A stretch of 34,253 bases of DNA, from assembly GCA_001825335.1 (NCBI GenBank), contig MHWA01000006.1, positions 4,368-38,620 of the forward strand, written 5' to 3'. Below are positions 1,710 to 24,354 of the stretch, piece by piece. The position numbers were made by a program, and so were the translations under genes. The notes beneath the pieces are model-generated. The model saw nothing but the letters and a program-made list of their open reading frames with translations. It had not been told where the DNA came from and made no database searches. Positions within the stretch are counted from its first letter, which is position 1. The number at the start of each line of letters is the position of its first letter. The DNA is from Candidatus Zambryskibacteria bacterium RIFCSPLOWO2_01_FULL_35_19 (lineage in GTDB: Bacteria; Patescibacteriota; Minisyncoccia; Phycocordibacterales; WO2-35-19).

Positions 1710-4190
1710 CTATGTCAAGCCGTGACAACGCTTGAATTTTTTGCCACTACCACAAGGACAAGGGTCATTTCTACCCACATCTTTATATTCTGATTTATTT
1801 TTTGAAGCAATATCTTGATCGTCAGTAACACCAGTTATTTTCAAGGCCTCTTTTTCCACTTCTCTTTGTGCTGTCAAATTAATAGCCGACTCATCCACCC
1901 TAGTTATAGTACCTAAAATCGCATTTTCAATAGACTCCTCCATTTCTTTAAAAAGTTTTAAGCCCTCTTTTTTGTATTCCACCAAAGGGTCTCTTTGACC
2001 ATAGGCGCGCAAATTGACGCTCCCTCTCAAATAATCCATAACCTCCAAATGCTCCACCCAAAACATATCAAAAGTCTGAAGACTAAGTTCTCTAAAAGCT
2101 TTTATAAAATTCTCTTCTCCCAAATCCAATCTTTTTTTAGAAATTAACTCTTTTATTTCTGGCAAAGCGTTAAGAGATATTTTATCTAGATATTTTAAAG
2201 TTATTTCCCTGTCTCCCATCAAGATATCTCTCCTTCTTTCATAAAAAGTTTTTCTTTGAAAATTTAAAACATCATCATATTCAAGAATATGCTTACGAGC
2301 ATCAAAATTAAGCCCTTCTATTTTTTCTTGGGCGCTCTCCAAAGATCTAGTGATCAATCTATTTTCAATAGGTTCATCTTCTGGGATGCCAAGTCTGCCC
2401 ATCATTTTTTTGACAGTATCAGCAGCAAAAACCCTCATAATATGGTCTTCCATAGAAACAAAAAATTGAGTCTCACCGGGGTCTCCCTGCCTACCCGCTC
2501 TTCCACGAAGTTGATTGTCTATCCTCCTCGCATCATGTCTTTCGGTACCTAAAACAAAAAGCCCGCCCAGATTTTTTACTTTTTCATAAGCCTCTTTTTC
2601 TAGAGGTGCTCCCCCAAGTTTAATGTCAATACCACGACCAGCCATATTGGTCGCTATAGTAACATTGCCCACTCTGCCGGCTTGAGCTAAAATTTCCGCT
2701 TCTCTTTCATGATTTTTAGCATTCAACATTTCAAATCTAACACCTTCCCTTTTCAGATATTCTCCCAATAATTCATTTTTTTCAATAGAAATAGTGCCGA
2801 CCAAAACTGGCTGACCTTTATTTTGGAGCTCTTTAACCTTTCTGGCAATAGCCAAAAGTTTGCCGTTTTCTGTTTGAAAAATAAAATCATTAACATCTTT
2901 TCTCTGCATTTCTTTATTGGTTGGTATGGCTACTGTATTTAATCCATAAACTTTATAAAATTCTTCGCTAGAAGTAGTAGCCGTGCCTGTCATACCAGAG
3001 AGTTTATGATACATCCTAAAATAATTTTGATAAGTGACAGAAGCAAAGGTCCTGCTCTCTTTTTGAATACTAACTCCTTCCTTAGCCTCTATCGCTTGAT
3101 GTAGACCTTCTGACCAACGTCTCCCTGGTTGAAGTCTACCTGTATAAGGGTCAACGATGATTACTTCATCATCTTTAACAACATAATCCTTATCTTTAAG
3201 ATAAAGAGCTTTTGCTTTAACTGCAGTTTCTAAATGATGAACCAACTTTATACCGCCTTCGGCATATATATTTTGCAACCCTAAGATTTTTTCGGCTTTA
3301 CTTATACCTTCATCTGTCAAAAGCACAGAATGCATCTTTTCTTCCAAGGTATAATCTTCGTTTTCTTTAAGTTGACCTGCCACCTTACTAAACTTTTTAT
3401 AAAAATCATCAGAGTCCGAAGCTGGTGCTGAAATAATAAGTGGAGTCCTTGCTTCGTCTATCAGGATAGAATCTATTTCGTCTACAACTGCAAAATAATG
3501 TCTTTTTTGTCTTACTTTTTCGCTTTGATATTCAAGATTATCTCGCAAATAATCAAAACCAAATTCACTATTGGTGCCATAAGTGATATCAGCTTCATAG
3601 GCCTCTATCCGAGTGCAAGGTTTTAAAAATTCATGAACTATGTGAAAAGATCCTTTTTTATCTCTTTCTTCATCTTTATCACTATCACCATTTTCTGGAT
3701 TATAAATAAAAGAAGAATCGTGAGCGATTACTCCCACTTTCAACCCTAGAGAATCATAAATTTGTCCCATCCAAGCGGTATCGCGACGAGAAAGATAATC
3801 ATTGACAGTAACTACGTGAACTCCTTTACCAGCTAAAGCATTTAGATAAACTGGCAGTGTCGCTACCAAAGTTTTTCCTTCACCAGTACGCATTTCAGCG
3901 ATACCTCCTTGATGCATCACAATACCTCCTAAAAGTTGCACATCAAAATGTCTTTCTCCCAAAGTTCTTTTAGCCACTTCTCTAACAACAGCAAAAGCTT
4001 CTGGTAAAATATCATCTAGCGTCTCTCCCTTTTTAAGTCTTTCTCTAAATTCAAAAGTTTTAGATTTTAATTCTTCTAGATTCAATTTAGAAACGGCTTC
4101 TTCAAAGCTGTTTATTTTAGAAACAATGGGTGATATTTCTTTTATATACCGAGAACTTGCGTCTCCAAATATTTTACTCAAAAATGACAT
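1710..4190 (-). CDS. secA: Preprotein translocase subunit SecA
   Basis: EMRTGEGKT, VDEIDSILIDEARTPLIIS, IATNMAGRG and QLRGRAGRQGDPG motifs; C-terminal SEC-C GRNDPCPCGSGKKFKRCH. Confidence 0.99.
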   Translation of the reverse strand: MSFLSKIFGDASSRYIKEISPIVSKINSFEEAVSKLNLEELKSKTFEFRERLKKGETLDDILPEAFAVVREVAKRTLGERHFDVQLLGGIVMHQGGIAEMRTGEGKTLVATLPVYLNALAGKGVHVVTVNDYLSRRDTAWMGQIYDSLGLKVGVIAHDSSFIYNPENGDSDKDEERDKKGSFHIVHEFLKPCTRIEAYEADITYGTNSEFGFDYLRDNLEYQSEKVRQKRHYFAVVDEIDSILIDEARTPLIISAPASDSDDFYKKFSKVAGQLKENEDYTLEEKMHSVLLTDEGISKAEKILGLQNIYAEGGIKLVHHLETAVKAKALYLKDKDYVVKDDEVIIVDPYTGRLQPGRRWSEGLHQAIEAKEGVSIQKESRTFASVTYQNYFRMYHKLSGMTGTATTSSEEFYKVYGLNTVAIPTNKEMQRKDVNDFIFQTENGKLLAIARKVKELQNKGQPVLVGTISIEKNELLGEYLKREGVRFEMLNAKNHEREAEILAQAGRVGNVTIATNMAGRGIDIKLGGAPLEKEAYEKVKNLGGLFVLGTERHDARRIDNQLRGRAGRQGDPGETQFFVSMEDHIMRVFAADTVKKMMGRLGIPEDEPIENRLITRSLESAQEKIEGLNFDARKHILEYDDVLNFQRKTFYERRRDILMGDREITLKYLDKISLNALPEIKELISKKRLDLGEENFIKAFRELSLQTFDMFWVEHLEVMDYLRGSVNLRAYGQRDPLVEYKKEGLKLFKEMEESIENAILGTITRVDESAINLTAQREVEKEALKITGVTDDQDIASKNKSEYKDVGRNDPCPCGSGKKFKRCHGLT

Positions 4191-4230
4191 AATAAAGCTA
4201 TATTAACACAAAAAACCTCAAATATGGAGT

Positions 4231-4263
4231 AAACAAAAACTCCATATAATGGAGTTTTTGTTT
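4231..4263. terminator. Bidirectional-type terminator after the small basic ORF
   Basis: Perfect 15-bp IR AAACAAAAACTCCAT-ata-ATGGAGTTTTTGTTT. Confidence 0.75.
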
Positions 4264-4277
4264 AAGCGGGAGAAGGA

Positions 4278-4382
4278 TTATTTTCTCCTTTTTTTAGCTA
4301 CTTTCTTTTTCTTTGCAACTTTCTTAACTGCTTTTCTTTTTGCAGGTTTCTTTTTAGCTGCTTTTTTTCTTTTTGCTGCCAT
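4278..4382 (-). CDS. Small Lys/Arg/Ala-rich histone-H1-like protein, 34 aa
   Basis: Translated by hand: MAAKRKKAAKKKPAKRKAVKKVAKKKKVAKKRRK*. 21/34 residues are K or R. Followed by a terminator; below the ORF-track size cut-off. Confidence 0.8.
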   Translation of the reverse strand: MAAKRKKAAKKKPAKRKAVKKVAKKKKVAKKRRK

Positions 4383-4551
4383 TTTATTTATGTCCCGCAG
4401 AGCGGGATTGAATTATTTTTTTAAGCGCGCGCTTTTTAAAATTTTATAAAAAATTTTAGAGCGTTATTTAATTTTTAAAAAATTAAATATAATCGACCTG
4501 TTTTAATTATCGCTCTAAAAAATTTTTTAGTAAATGTTTTTTTGTAAAAAA

Positions 4552-4560
4552 TGTGGATAA
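4552..4560 (-). promoter_or_regulatory. Single consensus DnaA box
   Basis: TGTGGATAA = reverse complement of TTATCCACA, within a very AT-rich intergenic stretch. Confidence 0.4.
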
Positions 4561-4668
4561 CTAAAAAAAATTTACTAAATTTTTTTTAGAATTTTCAGTA
4601 AATGTTTCAATTTTAAAATTTCTAAATTAATTTATTAGAAATTGTTTGTAAATTTTAAATTAAAAATT

Positions 4669-4778
4669 AAAAAATTCCTACTTGTCGGAATTTTTATATG
4701 TCGTCGCGTGGATGACGGAAGCTATCTCCAAAACAAATGTCTATGTGAGTGCGAACCGTCACCCGCGCCACAACACAC
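4669..4778 (-). ncRNA. Putative structured small RNA B (long stem, ~37-nt loop, own terminator)
   Basis: Promoter TTGAAA(4811-4806)-16nt-TATTAT(4789-4784). 5' GUGUGUUGU pairs with ACGACAUAU using G.U pairs that work only on the minus strand. Inner helices CGCG/CGCG and UGACGG/CCGUCA. Terminator-like IR 4670-4678/4687-4695. Confidence 0.55.
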
Positions 4779-4817
4779 TTTTAATAATACACCCTCTTTT
4801 CTTAATTTCAAATTTTT

Positions 4818-4894
4818 TAAAAAACAAAATAGTATTGTTTCGAGAGCATTATCCTCTGTGACCTAACGCAGAAACAATACTATTTTGTTTTTTA
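4818..4894. repeat. Long hairpin element with conserved 29-nt loop, copy A
   Basis: Perfect 24-bp IR (4818-4841/4871-4894) around GAGAGCATTATCCTCTGTGACCTAACGCA. Confidence 0.9.
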
Positions 4895-4900
4895 GATACG

Positions 4901-4979
4901 AAAATGCCACCCGAGGGTGGCGCTTTCGCAGACATTCATTTGTATGAAGAAAACTTAAATTGCTTCCTCACACTCACAT
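4901..4979 (-). ncRNA. Putative small RNA A (~79 nt)
   Basis: Near-consensus promoter TTGCGT(5013-5008)-17nt-TATACT(4990-4985) with extended TG. No ORF (ATG-TGA). Ends in GCCACC-CTCG-GGTGGC followed by ATTTT. Confidence 0.6.
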
Positions 4980-5021
4980 ATATAAGTATAGCATATTTGA
5001 CTTATTTACGCAAGTCTAGTT

Positions 5022-5102
5022 GGGGAAAAGCTCAAAAACATTGTTTCAAGAGCCTTATCCTTTGTAACCTAACGCAGAAATAATGTTTTTGAGCTTTTCC
5101 CC
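5022..5102. repeat. Long hairpin element with conserved 29-nt loop, copy B
   Basis: 26-bp IR with one G-T (5022-5047/5077-5102) around AAGAGCCTTATCCTTTGTAACCTAACGCA. Confidence 0.9.
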
Positions 5103-5107
5103 CCTTT

Positions 5108-7300
5108 TTACGGATTCCTCCCGGCTTTTATTTCATTTATATAGTATTCTCCCTGTTCCTTAAAAGTAGGATCTAAAATAATGATTTCTTCCAAAGTCTG
5201 AATAGCTTCTGTCCTTCTGTTTGCTTGCAAATAAACGGCAGTGAGAGTTATTCTGTGTTGTAAATTACTTGGGTCAAGCTCTATTCTTTTATTGACTATA
5301 TTTATTATTTCTTGATATTGACTCAATGATAGCAATATAGTCAAATACCTATCATCAAAAACCAATTTTGATTCTGGTATTTCACCTAAAATTTGCGATC
5401 CTGTGACCGTATCTCCAGAAGCAAGCAATGTCAGACCGTATATAAATTTAGCTTCTTCAAATGAAGTATCAAGTTCATAAGCAATCTTGGCCGACCCTAG
5501 AGCTTCGTTTGTTTTCCCATTAAGAAGATAGTTGCTTGTTAACTCAAAAAACATTTGTTGTTTATTTGGAGAAAGTTTTTGAGCTTCTTTCACTTGTTCT
5601 ATAGCTTTTTCATACAAACCAAATCTTGAAAGAAAAATCCCATAAAAAAGTCTGTAACGAGCGTCATCTGGAACTTTATCTAAATTCTTATTAAAAGATT
5701 TGTCTACCGCGTCAAACAATTCTTGCTTAAATTCAGTTGAAATATTTTGATTGGTCGCCATAGCAATGGCTGTTTGAGATATGTGTTCTAAACTTTCAGA
5801 AAAACCCATACCACTAGAAAGGGGCTTGGTATAAATTTTAATGTCTGCCACTTTTCCTTGATTGTTTGTTTTCAAAACTTCTAGCAAATCTTTATTTTGT
5901 TGCCAAGGCAAATAAATAACAAAATATAAAACTCCTATAATTAAAACTAATATTAAGGCCTCTATTATAGGTCTTCCTTTTTCGTTATCAAACATTTTTG
6001 TCATCTTGGCTGAAATATTATCCCACAAGGAAAGATTCATTTCTGAAGCATGCGAATGGACATAAGCCAAAATAGTAAAGAAGAGTATATAACTACTTAT
6101 CTGATCAAAAACGAAAAGATTATTAAAAAGGTAAGCAGAGACAAGCCCAAGCATTATAGCTTTTTCATTTTTAGACAAGTTTTCATTTTTAGATTTAAAG
6201 ATATAAAAAAGCAAAGCCAAAAGAATAGAAGTGTAAGAAAGAAAGCCCAAAAGTCCCCCTGCTACCAACCAATCAAGTGGGGTGCTATGAGCTCTATCAA
6301 ACCACGGCTCCTGATTATACATACGCGAATCATAATATTTATTGAAAACAAAATTAAAACCTTCTTGTCCCCAACCCAAAATTGGTTTTTCTACAAATCC
6401 TTTTATAGCCATTGGCCAAACAAAATATCTGCCTTGAGTTTTAACTTCAGAAAAAGAAAGAGAAGAGAAACGTCTTAAGACAGGACTCTCTTTAACAAAA
6501 GTGGTGTTTTTAAAAGCCAAAAATAATCCCACAAAAGCAATGAGTCCAATAAAGCCACCAAGAGCTACTTTTCTTATGCTGTCATTTTTTTCTGATTTAA
6601 ATAAAAGATATACAAAAGTGATAAAAGCACCCCCAAGAATACCCAAGATGGCTCCCCTAGTAGCGGTGAAATAAAGCACGACCAAATCCATCAAAGCAAT
6701 TATTGCCAATAAGATTTTTTGCCATTTTTGTTTAAACCTGACAAAAAGAAGAGCTGCAAAAAATATATGAAAAACCATATAAATACCAAGATAGCCCGCA
6801 TTACCTAAAGTGCCATCTACTCGAACTCCCCCCTGATTTATGGTAATCTTACCAGCCAACTGCAAGAAAGAATAAATAGCCATAATGGCAGAAGCGACTA
6901 AACTAGTCGCAAGGAGTTTATTCCACAACTCTTGAGTTTTTAAAACTGAACCCATCACTACAAAATAAGCGCCAAGATGGAGGAGAGTGATATAACCTTC
7001 CATTCTTTCATAATTACTCCAAAAAGCTTTGAAAGGGTTTTGAGCAAAAATATCAGCAAGTCCCATCACTATTAAAAATGTTAGTATTGCTCCCAATATC
7101 CAAGAAAATTTAGGCCGATAAGATTCGTCTCTTATAGCCAAAACAAGCCAAGTAGCAAAAACAATCTCAACTAAAAATCGGAAAACAAAAGCTTTGCCGG
7201 TAATAAATGGAAAAAAGAGTGATGAACTAACAATAAGTGGCACAAACGGCATCGCAAAAAGCCCAGCTAATATAATGTATTTGAGTTGACTGTTGGTCAT
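5108..7300 (-). CDS. O-antigen ligase (Wzy_C/WaaL/O-OTase) family membrane protein with C-terminal TPR-like repeats
   Basis: Many TM segments; R..GTLGN..Y, T.TRGA, P.LGWG and RAH..LD motifs; helical TPR-like C-terminal ~200 aa. Confidence 0.85.
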   Translation of the reverse strand: MTNSQLKYIILAGLFAMPFVPLIVSSSLFFPFITGKAFVFRFLVEIVFATWLVLAIRDESYRPKFSWILGAILTFLIVMGLADIFAQNPFKAFWSNYERMEGYITLLHLGAYFVVMGSVLKTQELWNKLLATSLVASAIMAIYSFLQLAGKITINQGGVRVDGTLGNAGYLGIYMVFHIFFAALLFVRFKQKWQKILLAIIALMDLVVLYFTATRGAILGILGGAFITFVYLLFKSEKNDSIRKVALGGFIGLIAFVGLFLAFKNTTFVKESPVLRRFSSLSFSEVKTQGRYFVWPMAIKGFVEKPILGWGQEGFNFVFNKYYDSRMYNQEPWFDRAHSTPLDWLVAGGLLGFLSYTSILLALLFYIFKSKNENLSKNEKAIMLGLVSAYLFNNLFVFDQISSYILFFTILAYVHSHASEMNLSLWDNISAKMTKMFDNEKGRPIIEALILVLIIGVLYFVIYLPWQQNKDLLEVLKTNNQGKVADIKIYTKPLSSGMGFSESLEHISQTAIAMATNQNISTEFKQELFDAVDKSFNKNLDKVPDDARYRLFYGIFLSRFGLYEKAIEQVKEAQKLSPNKQQMFFELTSNYLLNGKTNEALGSAKIAYELDTSFEEAKFIYGLTLLASGDTVTGSQILGEIPESKLVFDDRYLTILLSLSQYQEIINIVNKRIELDPSNLQHRITLTAVYLQANRRTEAIQTLEEIIILDPTFKEQGEYYINEIKAGRNP

Positions 7301-12523: not shown

Positions 12524-13258
12524 ATGAAGCCATCACTTTCGGTAGTCATACCAGTATTAAATGAAGCGGAAAATATAGGGAAAGCAGTAGAAGCTGTTTT
12601 ACGTGCTATTAATGATAGCAACATAAATCAATACGAAATTATTATTTCAGATAATGGTTCTACCGATGGAACGCGCGATGTTATTGAAGAGATGGAGAGT
12701 CATAATCCACACATAAAGCATGTTTATCCCACAGAAAACTTGGGTAGCGGTCAAGCGGTACGTGATGGTCTAAAAGTTGCCACCAGTGAATATTCTGCTT
12801 ATGTAGTCGGTGATAACGAAATGACCGAAGAAGCTCTTCACAACCTTTTTGGAGCACTTGGTAAAGCAGACATAATAAATACCTATATATCAAACCCAGA
12901 AGTACGTGCCCTCCCTCGACAAATACTTTCAGCTAACTTCGGCCGACTAATGCGATTGTTTTTTGGCGTCAAACTAAAATATTTTACTGGACCTGCCATC
13001 ATACGCACAGATTTATTCCGTGCCGCTCGTCGAAGCACTTATGGATTTGCCTTCATGGCAGAGATTCTTGTTCAAATAATAAAAGCAGGTTATTCATACT
13101 ATCAAGTACCAATGCCTCTTCAACCACGAACTTATGGCGAACCAGGAGTATATAGATTAAAAGATATGTGGCGCGTATTTAAAGCAGTCTTTTCTATGTT
13201 CTTTAACGTCCACTTTTCCGGTGCAGTTTCTAATCTACGGAATCTAAAGAAAAAATAA
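12524..13258 (+). CDS. Glycosyltransferase family 2 (polyprenol-P sugar synthase-like)
   Basis: SVVIPVLNE and DNGSTDGT motifs; the DxD position reads VGD. Confidence 0.88.
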   Translation: MKPSLSVVIPVLNEAENIGKAVEAVLRAINDSNINQYEIIISDNGSTDGTRDVIEEMESHNPHIKHVYPTENLGSGQAVRDGLKVATSEYSAYVVGDNEMTEEALHNLFGALGKADIINTYISNPEVRALPRQILSANFGRLMRLFFGVKLKYFTGPAIIRTDLFRAARRSTYGFAFMAEILVQIIKAGYSYYQVPMPLQPRTYGEPGVYRLKDMWRVFKAVFSMFFNVHFSGAVSNLRNLKKK

Positions 13259-19736: not shown

Positions 19737-21435
19737 TTGTTATATCTGGAGCGTTGCTACAATCATATATATTGGCGGAAATTTTTCCAGATGTTTCTTC
19801 ATAGATAGACTGACAAGAATTTAAATATTTAGCATAAACACTTTCTGGATCAATCTTAGGAATATTAACAACTAAATAATGCTCTTTATATTTATTAAGA
19901 CCCTCAATTTTTTCATTAATATCAAACTTAGGGTCAATATAAAGTCGTTTTCTATACTTACCTAGATTCACAATTTCTCCACCACCGTTATCATTATAAA
20001 CAATCACTTTTTTAATATCTGGATTTTGTTCAATAAACTCCACGGCATTACTAATGAGAGAAGAAGTATTGCCATTTATCTTGCCAAATAGATATTCTTC
20101 AGCAAAAACTACATTATATAGAAGTCCAAAAATAAAAACCCCAATCAAAATATTTTTCCTTAATTCTATTTTTTTCAAAGCAATAATAACAAACATTAAA
20201 CAAACAATCCAAACCAAAGCTATAAATCCTAAAGAAATATAAAACGGTGTAGGGCCAGATCCTCCCATAAAAGGAAAAAGTGTACTCCATCCTAGATAAA
20301 ATACTCTTCTTATCCATTCTGTTTTTGGATAAAGAGGCAGAGCAAGATGATTTAAAAACTGAAATATAAAAATCAAAACAGCAATAATAATGAACGGCAT
20401 CCATTCTCCACTTTTTATTTTCTCTTCTTTATCTATTATTTTACTAAATATAGCGCCAGATATAATAGCAAGTGGGATAACCAAAAACTGCAGGTATCTA
20501 TCCAAAGCTCCGATAGAGAAATCAAAAAGTAATAGATAAAAAACAAGTCCTACAAAAATAAGTAGAGAAAACAATCTGGTTTTTTTAAAAATTTCTTTAT
20601 CAATAAATACTAACGGTGCCAAAAGAAGTGGAGAAGAATATAGTAATGCTTTTATAAACTGAATAGTCGTTTGAAACCATCCTCTACCACTAAAGCTAAC
20701 AAAATGTTCCCAATATTTGAGAGAAGATTCTAATCTGAAAGAAGGAAAAATAAATCTTGAAACAAACAATATCAATATCAATAAGACAGCAATTCCTGTT
20801 ATCCATCCTAAAAATCTAAATACTCGTTTTTTATCTGATAATATTTTTTTTTCTATAACAAAATCTAAAACAAAAGCACCTATAAAAACAACAAAACTAA
20901 CTTTTATTAAAAATCCTAAAATTCCAGCTAAAACAAAAACAATCAACCATTTGGTAGTTTGAAAATTAGAAATTTTAAATTGGAAATTTGTTTTTCTTAA
21001 TTTCATATATGAAATTGCCATAATTAAGAAAAACATTGGCATAATAGCCCCATCAGTATCTACCATTAAGGAAGCTAGAACAGAATAAAAAGAAATACTG
21101 AAAAACAATGTAATCCATAAAGCAACTTTGCGACCAAAAAGAATCATTGCTAAATAGAAAAGTAAAAACAAATTCACAAAAGAGAACACAAGTGGTACTA
21201 ATCTCAAATTATCATTACCTAAAATATTATTAGCACTTCTATAAATAAACTCACCGACAGGTGGATGAGGTATTCGTCCCACTTCTGAACTTATATTAGT
21301 ATTTACTATATAAGCCCATTTATACTCATCTTGATGATATGAATTATGAACCGCCGGTAAACGTAAAGCCACAAAGATAATAGCTATAAATATGAACCAA
21401 ACAAAATCTTTTTTACGAAAAAATTCTAAATTCAT
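19726..21435 (-). CDS. GT-C fold membrane glycosyltransferase (GT39/ArnT-like)
   Basis: DE acidic motif after TM1, PHPP, LR and DRY motifs, many TMs, soluble C-terminal domain. Confidence 0.78.
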   Translation of the reverse strand: MNLEFFRKKDFVWFIFIAIIFVALRLPAVHNSYHQDEYKWAYIVNTNISSEVGRIPHPPVGEFIYRSANNILGNDNLRLVPLVFSFVNLFLLFYLAMILFGRKVALWITLFFSISFYSVLASLMVDTDGAIMPMFFLIMAISYMKLRKTNFQFKISNFQTTKWLIVFVLAGILGFLIKVSFVVFIGAFVLDFVIEKKILSDKKRVFRFLGWITGIAVLLILILFVSRFIFPSFRLESSLKYWEHFVSFSGRGWFQTTIQFIKALLYSSPLLLAPLVFIDKEIFKKTRLFSLLIFVGLVFYLLLFDFSIGALDRYLQFLVIPLAIISGAIFSKIIDKEEKIKSGEWMPFIIIAVLIFIFQFLNHLALPLYPKTEWIRRVFYLGWSTLFPFMGGSGPTPFYISLGFIALVWIVCLMFVIIALKKIELRKNILIGVFIFGLLYNVVFAEEYLFGKINGNTSSLISNAVEFIEQNPDIKKVIVYNDNGGGEIVNLGKYRKRLYIDPKFDINEKIEGLNKYKEHYLVVNIPKIDPESVYAKYLNSCQSIYEETSGKISANIYDCSNAPDITNER

Positions 21436-21507
21436 AAGAAGATACTACCACAAAAATTTATTTAATGAATAATTGACATAATTAAAGTATCATTGTAACA
21501 TGGCTTC

Positions 21508-24354
21508 ATGAATGAAAAAAACAAGGTGCTCAAAAAAAAGATATTTGGTTGGTCAAATACCAATTCTTCATACTCAATAACTGTTCTACCTAAGACGACA
21601 AAAACAGTCTCTTCTATCATTAAAGCGTTAAAAAACAACAATAACACAATCCTAGGACGTGGGGCGGGACAAAGTTATGGTGATCAATCTTTAAATAATG
21701 ACCAGATAATAATAGAAACAAACAGGTTAAATAAAATAATAGAATGGAATAAAAAAACTGGTGTTTTAAAAGTACAATCCGGTGTTACCCTTGATCAAAT
21801 ACTTAACCATTGTTTAAAAGATAATTGGACATTAGCCACTATACCCGGTACTCGTTATGTCACAGTAGGTGGAGCTCTTTCAAATAATGTTCATGGTAAA
21901 AATAGCTACAGAAAAGGAAATTTTGGAGAATGGGTCAAAGAATTCAAAATTATTATCGCTTCTGGAGAAAGTCTTCACTGTTCAAAAGAAATAAATAATG
22001 ACTTATTTTTTGCTGTCATTGGTGGAGCAGGACTGTTTGGTATTGTAACGGAGATAACTTTACAGCTTATTCCTATTCCCTCTCCATATTTATCTGTCAA
22101 AAAAAGCACCGCCTCATCACTTAACGAATTAATGAATGATTTAGATAAAGAGACAGAAAAAAACGATTTTGCTATTGCTCAAGTAGACTGCTTTCCTAAA
22201 ACATCAGAATTAGGTAGAGGCACAATCCATGCGGGTAATTTTACTCAAAACAATTCAAAAACAAAGGACATAGAGTCAATGAGGAAAATATCCCAAAATA
22301 TTTTCGGTATATTTCCTAAAAAATTAATACCTCTAATTGGGAAATATTTTTTAAATGATTACACAATGAAATTGGTCTCTGGATTTAAATATCATCTTGA
22401 TAAAAAAACAAGCTCTGAAAAATATCATCTCCAAGATATATATCAATTCACCTTTCTACTTGATAATGTTCCAAACTGGAAACAAGTATTCCGTCATGGT
22501 TTCTTTGAATACGAACCACTTATTCCAAAAGAAAAAGCGCGAGAAATTATTCCCTTACTTATTGCCCTTACTCACCAATACCAAATGCCTGCTTACCTTT
22601 CTGCTATAAAGGTGCACAGAAAAGACAACTTTCTTTTATCTTATTCTATGGATGGTTACTCTTTTGCCATGGATATCCCACGATGCCCGAAAGAAAAAGA
22701 AAAGCAAGATGAATTATTCCAAAAAATGAATAAAATTGTAATTGATGCTGGGGGTATCGTATATTTGGCTAAAGATGCAAACTTAACAGCAAATGAATTT
22801 CGGAAAATGTATAAAAATGTAGATCAATTTTTAGCATTAAAGAAAAAGTATGATCCAGAAGAGATCTTCCAATCAGATATGTATAGAAGGATTTTTAAAA
22901 ATAATAAAGAGGAAATGACAAATAAAATAAAAGATAGAGAAAACAATGAAAATAAATTATTAAATCTTGATCAAGCTCTAGATTTAGATCAGGAGTATGC
23001 AAATAAGTTATACAAAAAAAATGTAAACGCAGGTCTTTTAGGTATTTATGAAATCTTGGGATTAGATGATTTAGATGCTATATCAGCCGAAGGTATGGAG
23101 ATTAAGCTAAAAGACGGTAGAAAGATATTAGATTTTACATCAGCTTTAGGTATTGTAGCGTTAGGACATAACCACCCAAGAATACTTAAAGCTGAAGAGA
23201 GATGCCGTATAGATAAAATTTTAAATGCAATCAAGTTAGGTCCAAGCAAACTACAATCTGCACTAGCACATAATTTATCAATGCTACTCCCAGATCCTCT
23301 TTCTGTATCATTCTTTACTGTCTCCGGAGCAGAAGCGGTAGAGGCAGCTATGAAGCTTTGTGAAAAAGCACAAGGAACTGTTAGAAATAAATTTATTACC
23401 ACCAAAAACGCCTACCACGGCAAAACTCATACCACTCTGTCTGTGTCGCGTTCTGGCAATTTTAGAGATGGATTCATTCACAGTATTCCAGATGAAAATA
23501 TGATTGAAATACCCTATAACAATATAGATGCTCTAAAAAAAGTATTGAAAGAAAATGGTGACAAGATTGTAGCTATCATAATTGAACCAATTCAAGGGCA
23601 AGGTATAGAAATACCAAAAGAAGGCTACTTAAAATATGTAGTTGATATATGTCATAAAAATAATGTCCTCGTTATATTTGATGAAGTAAAAGTTGGAATG
23701 TCTAGAAGTGGCACCTTTTGTGCATTTCAAAGTGAAGATGTAGTACCAGATGTAGTGACTATATCAAAAGCACTTGGTGGTGGGTCTAGAGCAATAGGAG
23801 CAATGGTTACAAGTGAAAAATTATTTAAAAAAGCATATGGCAAAAGAGAAACTTGTGGACTCCATACTACAACCTTTGGAGGACTCGGAGTATCATGCGC
23901 TGTTGCTATTGAAGCTTTAAATATATTTGGTGACCTTGATTTCCAGAAAAGTGTTAGGGAAAAAGGAGAATACCTTAAAGAAAAATTAGACAACCTTAAA
24001 GCGAAATACCCTAACCAGATCAAAAACATAAAAGGCAGGGGCTTGCTTCAGGGTATCCAGTTTAATTTTAGAAATATATTTAATGGTAAGTTTGAGATCC
24101 CTGCTCTACCACTGATAGACACTTTTGATAAAGTTATGATGGCTAGCTTAGTGCGGACTTTATATAAAAAATATAACATATTGGCACATTTCACTGATTC
24201 AAATATAGACATACTACACATAATGCCTCCTCTGATCGTAGAGAAAGAGCATTTGGATAAGTTCGTAGAAGCACTTGATGAAATTTTAGACAAAGGTTTC
24301 GTCCCTATGGCTTGGAGCTTCACCACCTCAGTCATCAAAGACAAACTACCCTAG
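21508..24354 (+). CDS. Fusion: DprE1-like FAD-linked oxidoreductase (aa ~1-465) + class III PLP aminotransferase (aa ~480-948)
   Basis: N-half GRGAGQSYGD, PGT..VTVGGA..N.HGKN, YLAKD, DP...F.SD..RR. C-half LGHNHP, SGAEAVEAAMK, YHGKT, EPIQG, FDEV..G..RSG, PDVVTISKALGGG, TTFGG. Confidence 0.88.
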   Translation: MNEKNKVLKKKIFGWSNTNSSYSITVLPKTTKTVSSIIKALKNNNNTILGRGAGQSYGDQSLNNDQIIIETNRLNKIIEWNKKTGVLKVQSGVTLDQILNHCLKDNWTLATIPGTRYVTVGGALSNNVHGKNSYRKGNFGEWVKEFKIIIASGESLHCSKEINNDLFFAVIGGAGLFGIVTEITLQLIPIPSPYLSVKKSTASSLNELMNDLDKETEKNDFAIAQVDCFPKTSELGRGTIHAGNFTQNNSKTKDIESMRKISQNIFGIFPKKLIPLIGKYFLNDYTMKLVSGFKYHLDKKTSSEKYHLQDIYQFTFLLDNVPNWKQVFRHGFFEYEPLIPKEKAREIIPLLIALTHQYQMPAYLSAIKVHRKDNFLLSYSMDGYSFAMDIPRCPKEKEKQDELFQKMNKIVIDAGGIVYLAKDANLTANEFRKMYKNVDQFLALKKKYDPEEIFQSDMYRRIFKNNKEEMTNKIKDRENNENKLLNLDQALDLDQEYANKLYKKNVNAGLLGIYEILGLDDLDAISAEGMEIKLKDGRKILDFTSALGIVALGHNHPRILKAEERCRIDKILNAIKLGPSKLQSALAHNLSMLLPDPLSVSFFTVSGAEAVEAAMKLCEKAQGTVRNKFITTKNAYHGKTHTTLSVSRSGNFRDGFIHSIPDENMIEIPYNNIDALKKVLKENGDKIVAIIIEPIQGQGIEIPKEGYLKYVVDICHKNNVLVIFDEVKVGMSRSGTFCAFQSEDVVPDVVTISKALGGGSRAIGAMVTSEKLFKKAYGKRETCGLHTTTFGGLGVSCAVAIEALNIFGDLDFQKSVREKGEYLKEKLDNLKAKYPNQIKNIKGRGLLQGIQFNFRNIFNGKFEIPALPLIDTFDKVMMASLVRTLYKKYNILAHFTDSNIDILHIMPPLIVEKEHLDKFVEALDEILDKGFVPMAWSFTTSVIKDKLP

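Follow-up and report, generated by a model that had tools for sequence, protein, structure and literature searches.

Two adjacent genes for small RNAs, here called RNA A and RNA B, were identified on the minus strand of a 34,253-nt stretch of DNA from Candidatus Zambryskibacteria bacterium RIFCSPLOWO2_01_FULL_35_19 (assembly GCA_001825335.1), which is referred to below as the window. RNA A is best read as a trans-encoded small RNA of the antisense type, the only conserved sequences of which pair with the apical loop of the long hairpin RNA B, and we put the probability of this reading at roughly 0.72. The pair is probably an undescribed RNA regulator, judging from its co-evolved pairing and from the position of B as the leader of the cell-wall gene murB in related bacteria. 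Both RNAs are located in a 725-nt gap between two minus-strand genes (Table 1). The source genome (G000) comprises 510 kb in 20 contigs with about 35% G+C and a completeness of 91%, and the window corresponds to G000:C6:4368-38620. Where labels are needed, G, L, f and C with a number denote genomes, A/B loci, families and contigs of the named genome, respectively.

The complementarity had first been noticed in an original prediction made from the letters of the window, and all four duplexes listed there are present. The longest one joins 4980-4967 to 4742-4755 in 14 bp, with U4970-G4752 and G4967-U4755, both of them G.U, as the only non-Watson-Crick pairs. A duplex of 7 bp between 4936-4930 and 4736-4742 extends to 12 bp (4941-4930 with 4731-4742) via two further G.U pairs; the other two are an alternative register of 7 bp (4943-4937 with 4733-4739) and a 6-bp duplex of 4967-4962 with 4717-4722. 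The segments are indeed non-collinear. Predicted duplex energies with the B loop were compared with those of 1000 dinucleotide shuffles: nucleotides 15-58 of A gave -26.4 kcal/mol (shuffles -12.8 +/- 3.0, reached by 0/1000), the first 14 nucleotides -19.6 kcal/mol (-12.4 +/- 2.2, reached by 5/1000), and the whole of A -30.5 kcal/mol (-20.3 +/- 3.6, reached by 10/1000).

Co-evolution was analysed with A and B paired from 44 genomes holding both, and compensatory double changes were found at 7 trans pairs in all. Helix I is formed by the 5' end of A, GUGAGUGYG, with CGCACUCAC of B, helix II by the single-stranded AA(A/C)(U/C)GAAUGUCU of A with AGACAUUUGUUU of B, and helix III, which was absent from the original prediction, by the 3' strand of A hairpin 1 with UGGAG-NNN-GC of B. 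Position 1 of helix I is G-C in 41 genomes, A-U in 2 and G.U in 1, and position 6 is U-A in 41, C-G in 1 and C.A in 2; the double changes in this helix concern two pairs in three genomes, namely G-C to A-U in L018 and L033 and U-A to C-G in L037. In helix II, five of the 12 pairs show such changes, over 11 genome cells, including G-C to A-U in L020, L032, L052 and L059 (at least three families), U-A to A-U in L034 and L047 (two families), U-A to C-G in L054, and C-G to U-A in L008. The variable triplet of B in helix III changes along with A, most clearly in L044 (GCUGGCU in A, AGCCAGC in B), and a shorter B loop in L008 and L017 is accompanied by a shorter segment II in A. For all three helices, cognate partners pair better than swapped ones, with mean energies of -15.5 versus -14.9 kcal/mol for helix I, -12.4 versus -10.8 kcal/mol for helix II and -9.82 versus -7.88 kcal/mol for helix III, and in each case 0 of 5000 permutations reached the cognate mean. 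The original prediction had made its proposal depend on complementarity being preserved in homologues, and there it is retained through compensatory changes. As far as sequence comparison can tell, the trans pairing of A and B is supported by co-evolution. All conserved bases of A, and nearly all of those of the B loop, sit in trans helices, and therefore an antisense regulator fits better than a two-piece catalytic or scaffold RNA.

RNA A reveals the outline of a small independent gene. Its predicted fold has an energy of -33.7 kcal/mol (z -5.5; 0/200 shuffles equal), and an alignment of 18 copies shows compensatory changes at 7 of the 18 predicted pairs, which comprise the 5' hairpin and the terminator. 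The inner stem of the latter covaries, with column pair 81/97 being G-C in 8 copies, C-G in 7, U.G in 2 and U-A in 1. The promoter architecture is kept in relatives, with TTGCAT or TTGCAA, a spacing of about 17 nt and TGCTATACT upstream of A. A is terminated in every relative inspected, and promoter, seeds and terminator are all retained. The consensus scan missed the A promoter because its -35 box matches at only 3 of 6 positions. No coding frame was found in A, since the sole AUG, at the 5' end, is followed immediately by UGA. A therefore presents itself as a trans-encoded small RNA: it is an independent transcription unit with predicted promoter and terminator and no frame, and its complementarity has co-evolved with a partner encoded elsewhere.

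RNA B folds at -49.8 kcal/mol (z -7.6; 0/200 shuffles equal), in agreement with the long stem and the 37-nt loop at 4755-4719 that had been proposed. The alignment of 18 copies reveals a stem of 28 pairs with compensatory changes at 15 of them, and the core at 4758-4716 shows up to 100% identity in G007, of the same genus, and 97% in G034, of another genus of the same family (BLAST). In relatives, a -10-like box is located about 7 nt upstream of B, and at the position of the B terminator the family relatives carry differing hairpins followed by a U-run. The consensus scan missed the B terminator because it contains only two G-C pairs. Promoter-like and terminator-like signals had been claimed for both RNAs, and all four could be found, the B promoter and the A terminator by the consensus scan and the other two from sequence or fold. 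A small peptide encoded in B was considered upon inspection and rejected: the sole frame on the RNA strand is an 18-codon one starting with GTG, without a ribosome-binding site, and the stem covaries as RNA. As a possible riboswitch leader of murB, in which a ligand pocket would show as a multi-helix junction or as conserved unpaired bases without another explanation, B was considered from sequence only: it is a single hairpin whose conserved loop bases are all explained by pairing with A, it persists without murB, and it may still bind a ligand.

Table 1. Features of the RNA A/RNA B locus and its neighbours, in window coordinates
Feature	Position	Strand	Evidence or remark
Wzy_C/TPR membrane protein gene	5108-7300	minus	upstream neighbour of the gap
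Long hairpin	5102-5022	minus	first element of the gap
RNA A promoter: -35 TTGCGT (5013-5008), 17-nt spacer, extended -10 TGcTATACT (4993-4985)	5013-4985	minus	read by eye
RNA A, ~80 nt: 5' seed I, hairpin 1, single-stranded seed II, intrinsic terminator	4979-4898	minus	covariance model R2, 78.3 bits
A segment I, GUGAGUGUG	4977-4969	minus	pairs with B segment I' (4753-4745)
A hairpin 1	4973-4942	minus	minimum free energy fold and covarying pairs; 5' strand overlaps segment I, 3' strand is segment III
A segment III, UUUUCUUCA	4953-4945	minus	pairs with B segment III' (4730-4722)
A segment II, AAAUGAAUGUCU, single-stranded linker	4941-4930	minus	pairs with B segment II' (4742-4731)
A intrinsic terminator: GCGAAAG, GC hairpin, UUUUCGU	4929-4898	minus	consensus scan flagged hairpin 4921-4906
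Second hairpin, related to the first	4894-4818	minus	between RNA A and the RNA B promoter
RNA B promoter: TTGAAA, 16 nt, TATTAT	4811-4784	minus	consensus scan, 10/12 matches
RNA B, whole gene	4779-4669	minus	hairpin and own terminator
B hairpin: ~24-bp stem, 37-nt loop (4755-4719)	4779-4694	minus	model R1, 105.8 bits (other strand 29.9)
B segment I', CGCACUCAC	4753-4745	minus	pairs with A segment I
B segment II', AGACAUUUGUUU, terminal part of loop	4742-4731	minus	pairs with A segment II
B segment III', UGGAGAUAG (GGAG, variable triplet, GC)	4730-4722	minus	pairs with A segment III
Terminator of stand-alone B, AT-rich, AAAAAUUCC...GGAAUUUUUU	4695-4669	minus	minimum free energy fold
AT-rich spacer, 290 nt	4383-4668		between the B terminator and the H1-like/secA genes
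Promoter-like site in spacer	4534-4506		consensus scan; separate from the B promoter
H1-like 34-codon frame, nearly all Lys, Ala, Arg	4278-4382	minus	just upstream of secA
secA	1710-4190	minus	downstream of the gap, after the 34-aa Lys/Ala-rich frame

A BLAST search against 60 relatives found both RNAs across the family, and covariance models (R1 for B and R2, the weaker one, for A) were applied to wider samples. Among 151 genomes sampled evenly from the order, representing more than 118 families, B was detected in 109 (as a single match in 107 of them) and A in 81. Both were present in 76 genomes, B only in 33, A only in 5 and neither in 37, which corresponds to an odds ratio of 17 among kin that are not independent; four of the five A-only matches are weak. 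In a sample of 151 genomes from the whole phylum, B was found in three, namely G000, one genome of the same order and one of five from the other orders of the class, and in 0/144 genomes from other classes. Typically, A shares the strand of B and precedes it by 30-300 nt; in 27 of 29 order-level loci the two are no more than 1.5 kb apart. The two are on opposite strands in L008, L017, L035 and L047, 0.5-1.1 kb apart in L016, L037, L043 and L045, and on separate contigs in G007 and G032. By these arrangements and their predicted signals, A and B are two separate genes with conserved promoters of their own. In G011 (C9/C18), G012 (C13/C21) and G016 (C1/C25), two contigs end inside the B core and overlap by about 35-43 nt; the stretch is likely identical among co-occurring strains, breaking the metagenome assembly. 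Since the B core breaks assemblies, B may be under-counted in fragmented genomes.

The genes next to B were surveyed in the same 29 loci, which come from other families and from two other genera of the family of G000. In 21 of them murB (identified via Pfam) directly follows B on the same strand, and in 16 a Wzy_C/TPR gene lies upstream. From the B hairpin to the first in-frame start codon, the gap is 0-19 nt in 17 of the 21 murB-linked loci and 68-170 nt in the other four, and a crude pattern found a Shine-Dalgarno-like motif in only 1/21. In most of the order, B is, to judge from this position, the 5' end (first 88 nt) of the murB mRNA. The other eight loci (L032, L033, L042, L045, L048, L051, L054 and L058) reveal a terminator-like hairpin after B, as in the window, and L045 has murB between A and B. 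Free-standing B was seen in at least four families, namely f1, f10 (L042, L058), f42 (L045) and f106 (L054).

A MurB_C domain was not found in G000 and is present in just 10 of 24 genomes of its family, on another contig or far from A and B. Two genomes with a completeness rating of 100%, G007 and G017, contain A and B but gave no murB match. Beside the relocated murB of five family loci, no B-like hairpin was detected (best score 14.4 bits, compared with 52.1 for a control locus of another family), and upstream of the relocated family murB genes, the start codons of which are only roughly called, the search for an A-binding site gave nothing convincing. Within the family, the B core is invariant, the stem covaries and the terminators differ in sequence. 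In G000 and its family, B is uncoupled from murB and, by its predicted signals, maintained as a free small RNA. As B is conserved where murB was not found, the pair would do something beyond acting on murB in cis. B may also be released from the murB transcripts, in all lineages.

The energy of the complex was calculated as the sum of duplex and opening energies, because A together with a B loop closed by its stem forms a pseudoknot, to which RNAcofold is not applicable. Opening segment II costs 0.2 kcal/mol in A and 3.0 kcal/mol in the terminal loop of B, leaving a net pairing energy of -6.7 kcal/mol; helix I alone yields -0.3, helix III alone +11.6, and the three together about -7.3 kcal/mol. 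In the free RNAs, the strands of I and III are locked in A hairpin 1 and in a small apical helix of B (GC/GC, CUC/GAG). Segment I of A resembles III' of B, and I' of B resembles III of A. The four strands being mutually compatible, opening of both hairpins lets them re-pair between the molecules. We propose that the single-stranded segment II of A would make the initial contact with the terminal part of the B loop, and that strand exchange would follow, in which A hairpin 1 and the apical helix of B open and re-pair as helices I and III until nearly the whole 37-nt loop is duplex. In such a complex the 5' strands would pair with each other and the 3' strands likewise, giving a pseudoknot-like arrangement without a planar four-way junction. 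In murB-linked lineages, the pairing would set the fate of the murB mRNA, most simply through cutting of the ~20-bp duplex by RNase III, or through processing. G000 has an RNase III; no Hfq was detected. We infer in what order the pairing would proceed, what part RNase III would play and whatever effect there may be on murB or further targets.

Several observations weigh against this reading of A as an antisense-type RNA acting on B. Only a modest net energy is predicted. Helix I is not nested with helices II+III and a stable ~24-bp stem closes the B loop, so that the three may not all form at once in a 1:1 complex. Most trans pairs are invariant, which leaves few covariation events, with double changes in 3 cells for helix I and in 11 for helix II over the 44 genomes. 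Contradicting cells are A7-B3 as U.C in three genomes, A6-B4 as C.A in two and A5-B8 as G.A in five. The AGAC and GUUU of B can pair within B itself, so that the change in L020 fits both models, and the significance of the permutation and Fisher tests is overstated owing to the non-independence of kin. Both transcripts and their ends are predictions, and all 20 listed runs with DNA of the locus are DNA metagenomes. Moreover, G000 has neither a detected murB nor another convincing target of A. Motif scans for other A targets in G000 gave no clear candidate, B being the sole site at which I' and II' are adjacent. When 563 start regions of G000 were scanned for duplexes, only loose, long-looped ones without a clear outlier were obtained; on long inputs, duplexfold yields unrealistic duplexes of this kind.

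The two RNAs may be arranged the other way round, with B as a decoy (sponge) and other mRNAs, such as those of envelope genes, as the real targets of A; B, free or as the murB leader, would then set the amount of free A. The near invariance of the A seeds and the B loop across more than 100 families would exceed what mutual pairing needs and would be expected of a multi-target small RNA, and the persistence of A and B where murB was not found points the same way. We nevertheless consider this unlikely, given that the adjacent sites I' and II' occur in G000 only in B, that the start-region scan had no outlier and that no second conserved target was identified. Somewhat tentatively, A and B could instead constitute an autonomous two-RNA switch, whose hairpins would exchange strands into a bimolecular pseudoknot-like complex; in these bacteria, which lack Hfq and SRP (signal recognition particle), it would be a regulator in itself, acting perhaps on envelope synthesis in addition to murB, or else a protein scaffold, with the murB leader as one deployment of B; this is possible, though we would not favour it. 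It is quite improbable that A and B form a single two-piece structured RNA, be it a ribonucleoprotein scaffold or a ribozyme, rather than a regulator and its target. The non-collinear, pseudoknot-like order of the segments would suit such an RNA, as would the tight linkage within 1.5 kb and the fact that both are single-copy and widely conserved. However, nearly all conserved bases are in predicted helices, so that no conserved unpaired core is left, A looks like an ordinary small RNA with a terminator, no conserved gene for a protein partner lies nearby, and 33 of 151 genomes yielded B but no A, though the model for A is the weaker one.

If B were only a cis-acting leader of murB, the A and B of the G000 family, in which murB would have been relocated or lost, would be decaying leftovers without function. 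The murB that follows B in 21 of 29 loci outside the group of G000, and the failure to find murB or another A target in G000, are what one would expect of leftovers. The state of the RNAs makes this very improbable, because the B core is identical within the family and the stem changes via compensatory pairs, because free-standing B has gained terminators that differ between genomes while A keeps its promoter, seeds and terminator, and because free-standing B recurs in at least four families; leftovers would not remain so intact. The pairing segments are short and partly AU-rich, which might suggest that the complementarity is mere chance or the trace of an old inverted duplication. The shuffle controls, the compensatory changes and the comparison of cognate with swapped partners are all contrary to chance, and the segment order excludes a simple inverted duplication, so that we regard a functionless complementarity as practically negligible.

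With regard to known RNA families, the original prediction had recognised neither RNA as a tRNA, signal recognition particle (SRP) RNA, 6S RNA or transfer-messenger RNA (tmRNA), and Rfam, ARAGORN and model searches without a match bear it out. No family of Rfam 15 matched the window at gathering scores, and none explains either RNA. In E-value mode, region 4200-5300 gave only sub-threshold matches of the microRNA type, on neighbouring hairpin repeats rather than on A or B, the best being mir-266 with 29.8 bits versus a cut-off of 80. ARAGORN found no tRNA or tmRNA in the window. G000 carries a tmRNA (C4:44386-44801), an RNase P RNA (C14:25633-26058) and a 5S ribosomal RNA (C17:422-528) elsewhere. 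SRP RNA (RF00169/RF01854) had no match in G000 at E up to 10, with RF00169 in 0/41 relatives, and 6S RNA (RF00013) had no match in G000 either. That A or B is a divergent housekeeping RNA, SRP or 6S, which the Rfam models miss, could seem attractive in a genome without any detectable copy of either, the more so as B is single-copy, highly conserved and near secA. The Ffh M domain (PF02978), however, was found in 0/41 relatives and 0/151 genomes of the phylum sample, the SRP GTPase domain (PF00448) and FtsY were not found in G000, and the DTAGR motif occurs in none of its open frames of at least 60 aa. B has neither a GNRA tetraloop nor the helix-8 loops, which are well-known features of SRP RNA, and is restricted to one order plus one of five other genomes of the class; the 88-nt hairpin of B and the ~80 nt of A are much shorter than 6S RNA (~180 nt, with a central bubble). 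SRP or 6S RNA identity was therefore rejected, being contradicted by the model searches, the missing Ffh and the size, and its probability is vanishingly small. PMC4508563 reports the loss of ffh and ffs, the SRP genes, in Parcubacteria; the absence of an SRP system from G000 agrees with this and is already known.

Full-text searches on Parcubacteria, Patescibacteria and the candidate phyla radiation, which left subscription journals and bioRxiv supplements outside, returned no paper on a small RNA that acts by base pairing in these bacteria. A and B are two RNA families present in neither Rfam 15 nor the searched literature, and the three-block, out-of-order pairing and the free-standing B are new as well; systems of this kind, in which a small RNA of the antisense type targets a leader hairpin, are already known. 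Of the interpretation given in the original prediction, two separate undescribed small RNAs pairing in trans have stood up. Its suggestion that they control the downstream H1-like gene has not: no link was found, B is set apart from that gene by its own terminator and by the 290-nt spacer with a further promoter-like site at 4534-4506, and relatives have murB after B.

On the minus strand, the gap contains, in this order, the hairpin 5102-5022, the A promoter, RNA A, the related hairpin 4894-4818, the promoter-like site of B, RNA B, its terminator and the spacer. The two hairpins that flank RNA A on either side belong to a family of long hairpins with at least nine copies in G000 and further copies in genus and family relatives. 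Their perfect basal stems of 20-25 bp differ in sequence from copy to copy and, with an A-run 5' and a U-run 3', resemble a two-way terminator; the conserved apical element of about 39 nt, GUUUCUGCGUUAGGUCAyAaGGAUAAkGCUCUUGAAAC, is common to all. Besides the window copies (5022-5102 and 4818-4894, minus strand), they were located in C7 (~21735-21816 and ~21045-21130), C15 (~21383-21469), C9 (~108-189) and C4 (~12570-12640, ~88970-89050 and ~100095-100170). No match to this family was obtained in Rfam.

The spacer 4383-4668 is probably the promoter region of secA. It contains a number of long, imperfect repeats in inverted or direct orientation (I3 and I4 at 4445-4587; D2, D3, D5) and a motif, GAGNGATAATTA...GGTCGATTA, common to the same spacer in L032, L042 and L058. 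A perfect TTATCCACA box at 4560-4552, together with similar boxes before the A promoter in relatives, suggested a replication origin. This was ruled out, as the GC skew is negative across the window without a switch, dnaA in complete relatives lies 147 kb (G128) and ~250 kb (G121) from B, and the box occurs at many promoters. The DnaA-box-like TTATCCACA (minus strand in the window) is found about 8 nt upstream of -35 boxes of the TTGCAT type or about 40-50 nt upstream of -10 boxes, with sites at the A promoter in L012, L013, L015 and others, at the secA/H1 promoter and at G000 C20:24407, and with 47 loose matches in G000; it may be a promoter-proximal factor site. The H1-like frame is made of short direct DNA repeats (families D4, D6 and D10) and has no Pfam match. 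According to Pfam, the remainder of the window is a gene cluster for surface polysaccharides, which includes an unusual fusion protein of 948 aa (21508-24354, plus strand) with an FAD_binding_4/ALO oxidase part and a class-III aminotransferase part. Runs with DNA near-identical to the locus come from groundwater and soil metagenomes only.

Taken as new RNA families, A and B extend over more than 100 families of one order, with covariation strong enough for curated models, and they point to RNA-based control of murB, a peptidoglycan gene, in organisms for which very few regulators are known. Out-of-order complementarity in three blocks between two hairpins would be an unusual pairing design, and the survival of the hairpin RNA as a free gene where murB was not found suggests that a simple picture of a small RNA repressing the murB leader is incomplete. 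Like GlmY/GlmZ with glmS, A and B are two small RNAs tied to a gene for cell-wall precursors, but the homologous GlmY and GlmZ compete for a protein instead of pairing with one another and have no likeness to A and B in sequence or structure. GcvB/SroC and RybB/3'ETS-leuZ resemble the pair in that two non-coding RNAs are mainly known to interact with each other; most sponges described so far arise as by-products when mRNAs or tRNAs are processed, whereas B in the window is a dedicated gene with its own predicted promoter and terminator and at least as conserved as A. With RybB and OmrA/B of enterobacteria, A shares an own promoter, a conserved seed at the 5' terminus, a second single-stranded seed and a Rho-independent terminator. 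It differs from them in that no Hfq was found in G000, in that its sole identified partner is a structured hairpin loop instead of a ribosome-binding site, and in the complementarity of about 30 nt in three blocks. Also similar is RNAIII of S. aureus with coa, spa and rot, where Hfq-independent two-part pairing involves loop-loop contacts at mRNA 5' hairpins and subsequent cleavage by RNase III; RNAIII is, however, large and has many targets, compared with the ~80 nt and the single known partner of A.

CopA/CopT of plasmid R1 and RNA I/RNA II of ColE1 are plasmid pairs of an antisense RNA and a leader hairpin, the former pair forming a planar four-way junction. As proposed for A and B, the loop of a leader hairpin is there the recognition site of a small RNA with a terminator, pairing probably begins at a loop and spreads by opening the hairpins of both partners, and RNase III can cut the duplex. 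RNAs of the CopA type come from the strand opposite their target and so are complementary to it in full and in collinear order; A, in contrast, is encoded in trans, beside B and mostly on the same strand. With three complementary blocks, of which block I is out of order, the planar four-way junction of CopA/CopT would be impossible for A and B. Unlike the plasmid pairs, finally, A and B are chromosomal and conserved across an order, and B is predicted to exist as a free RNA as well.

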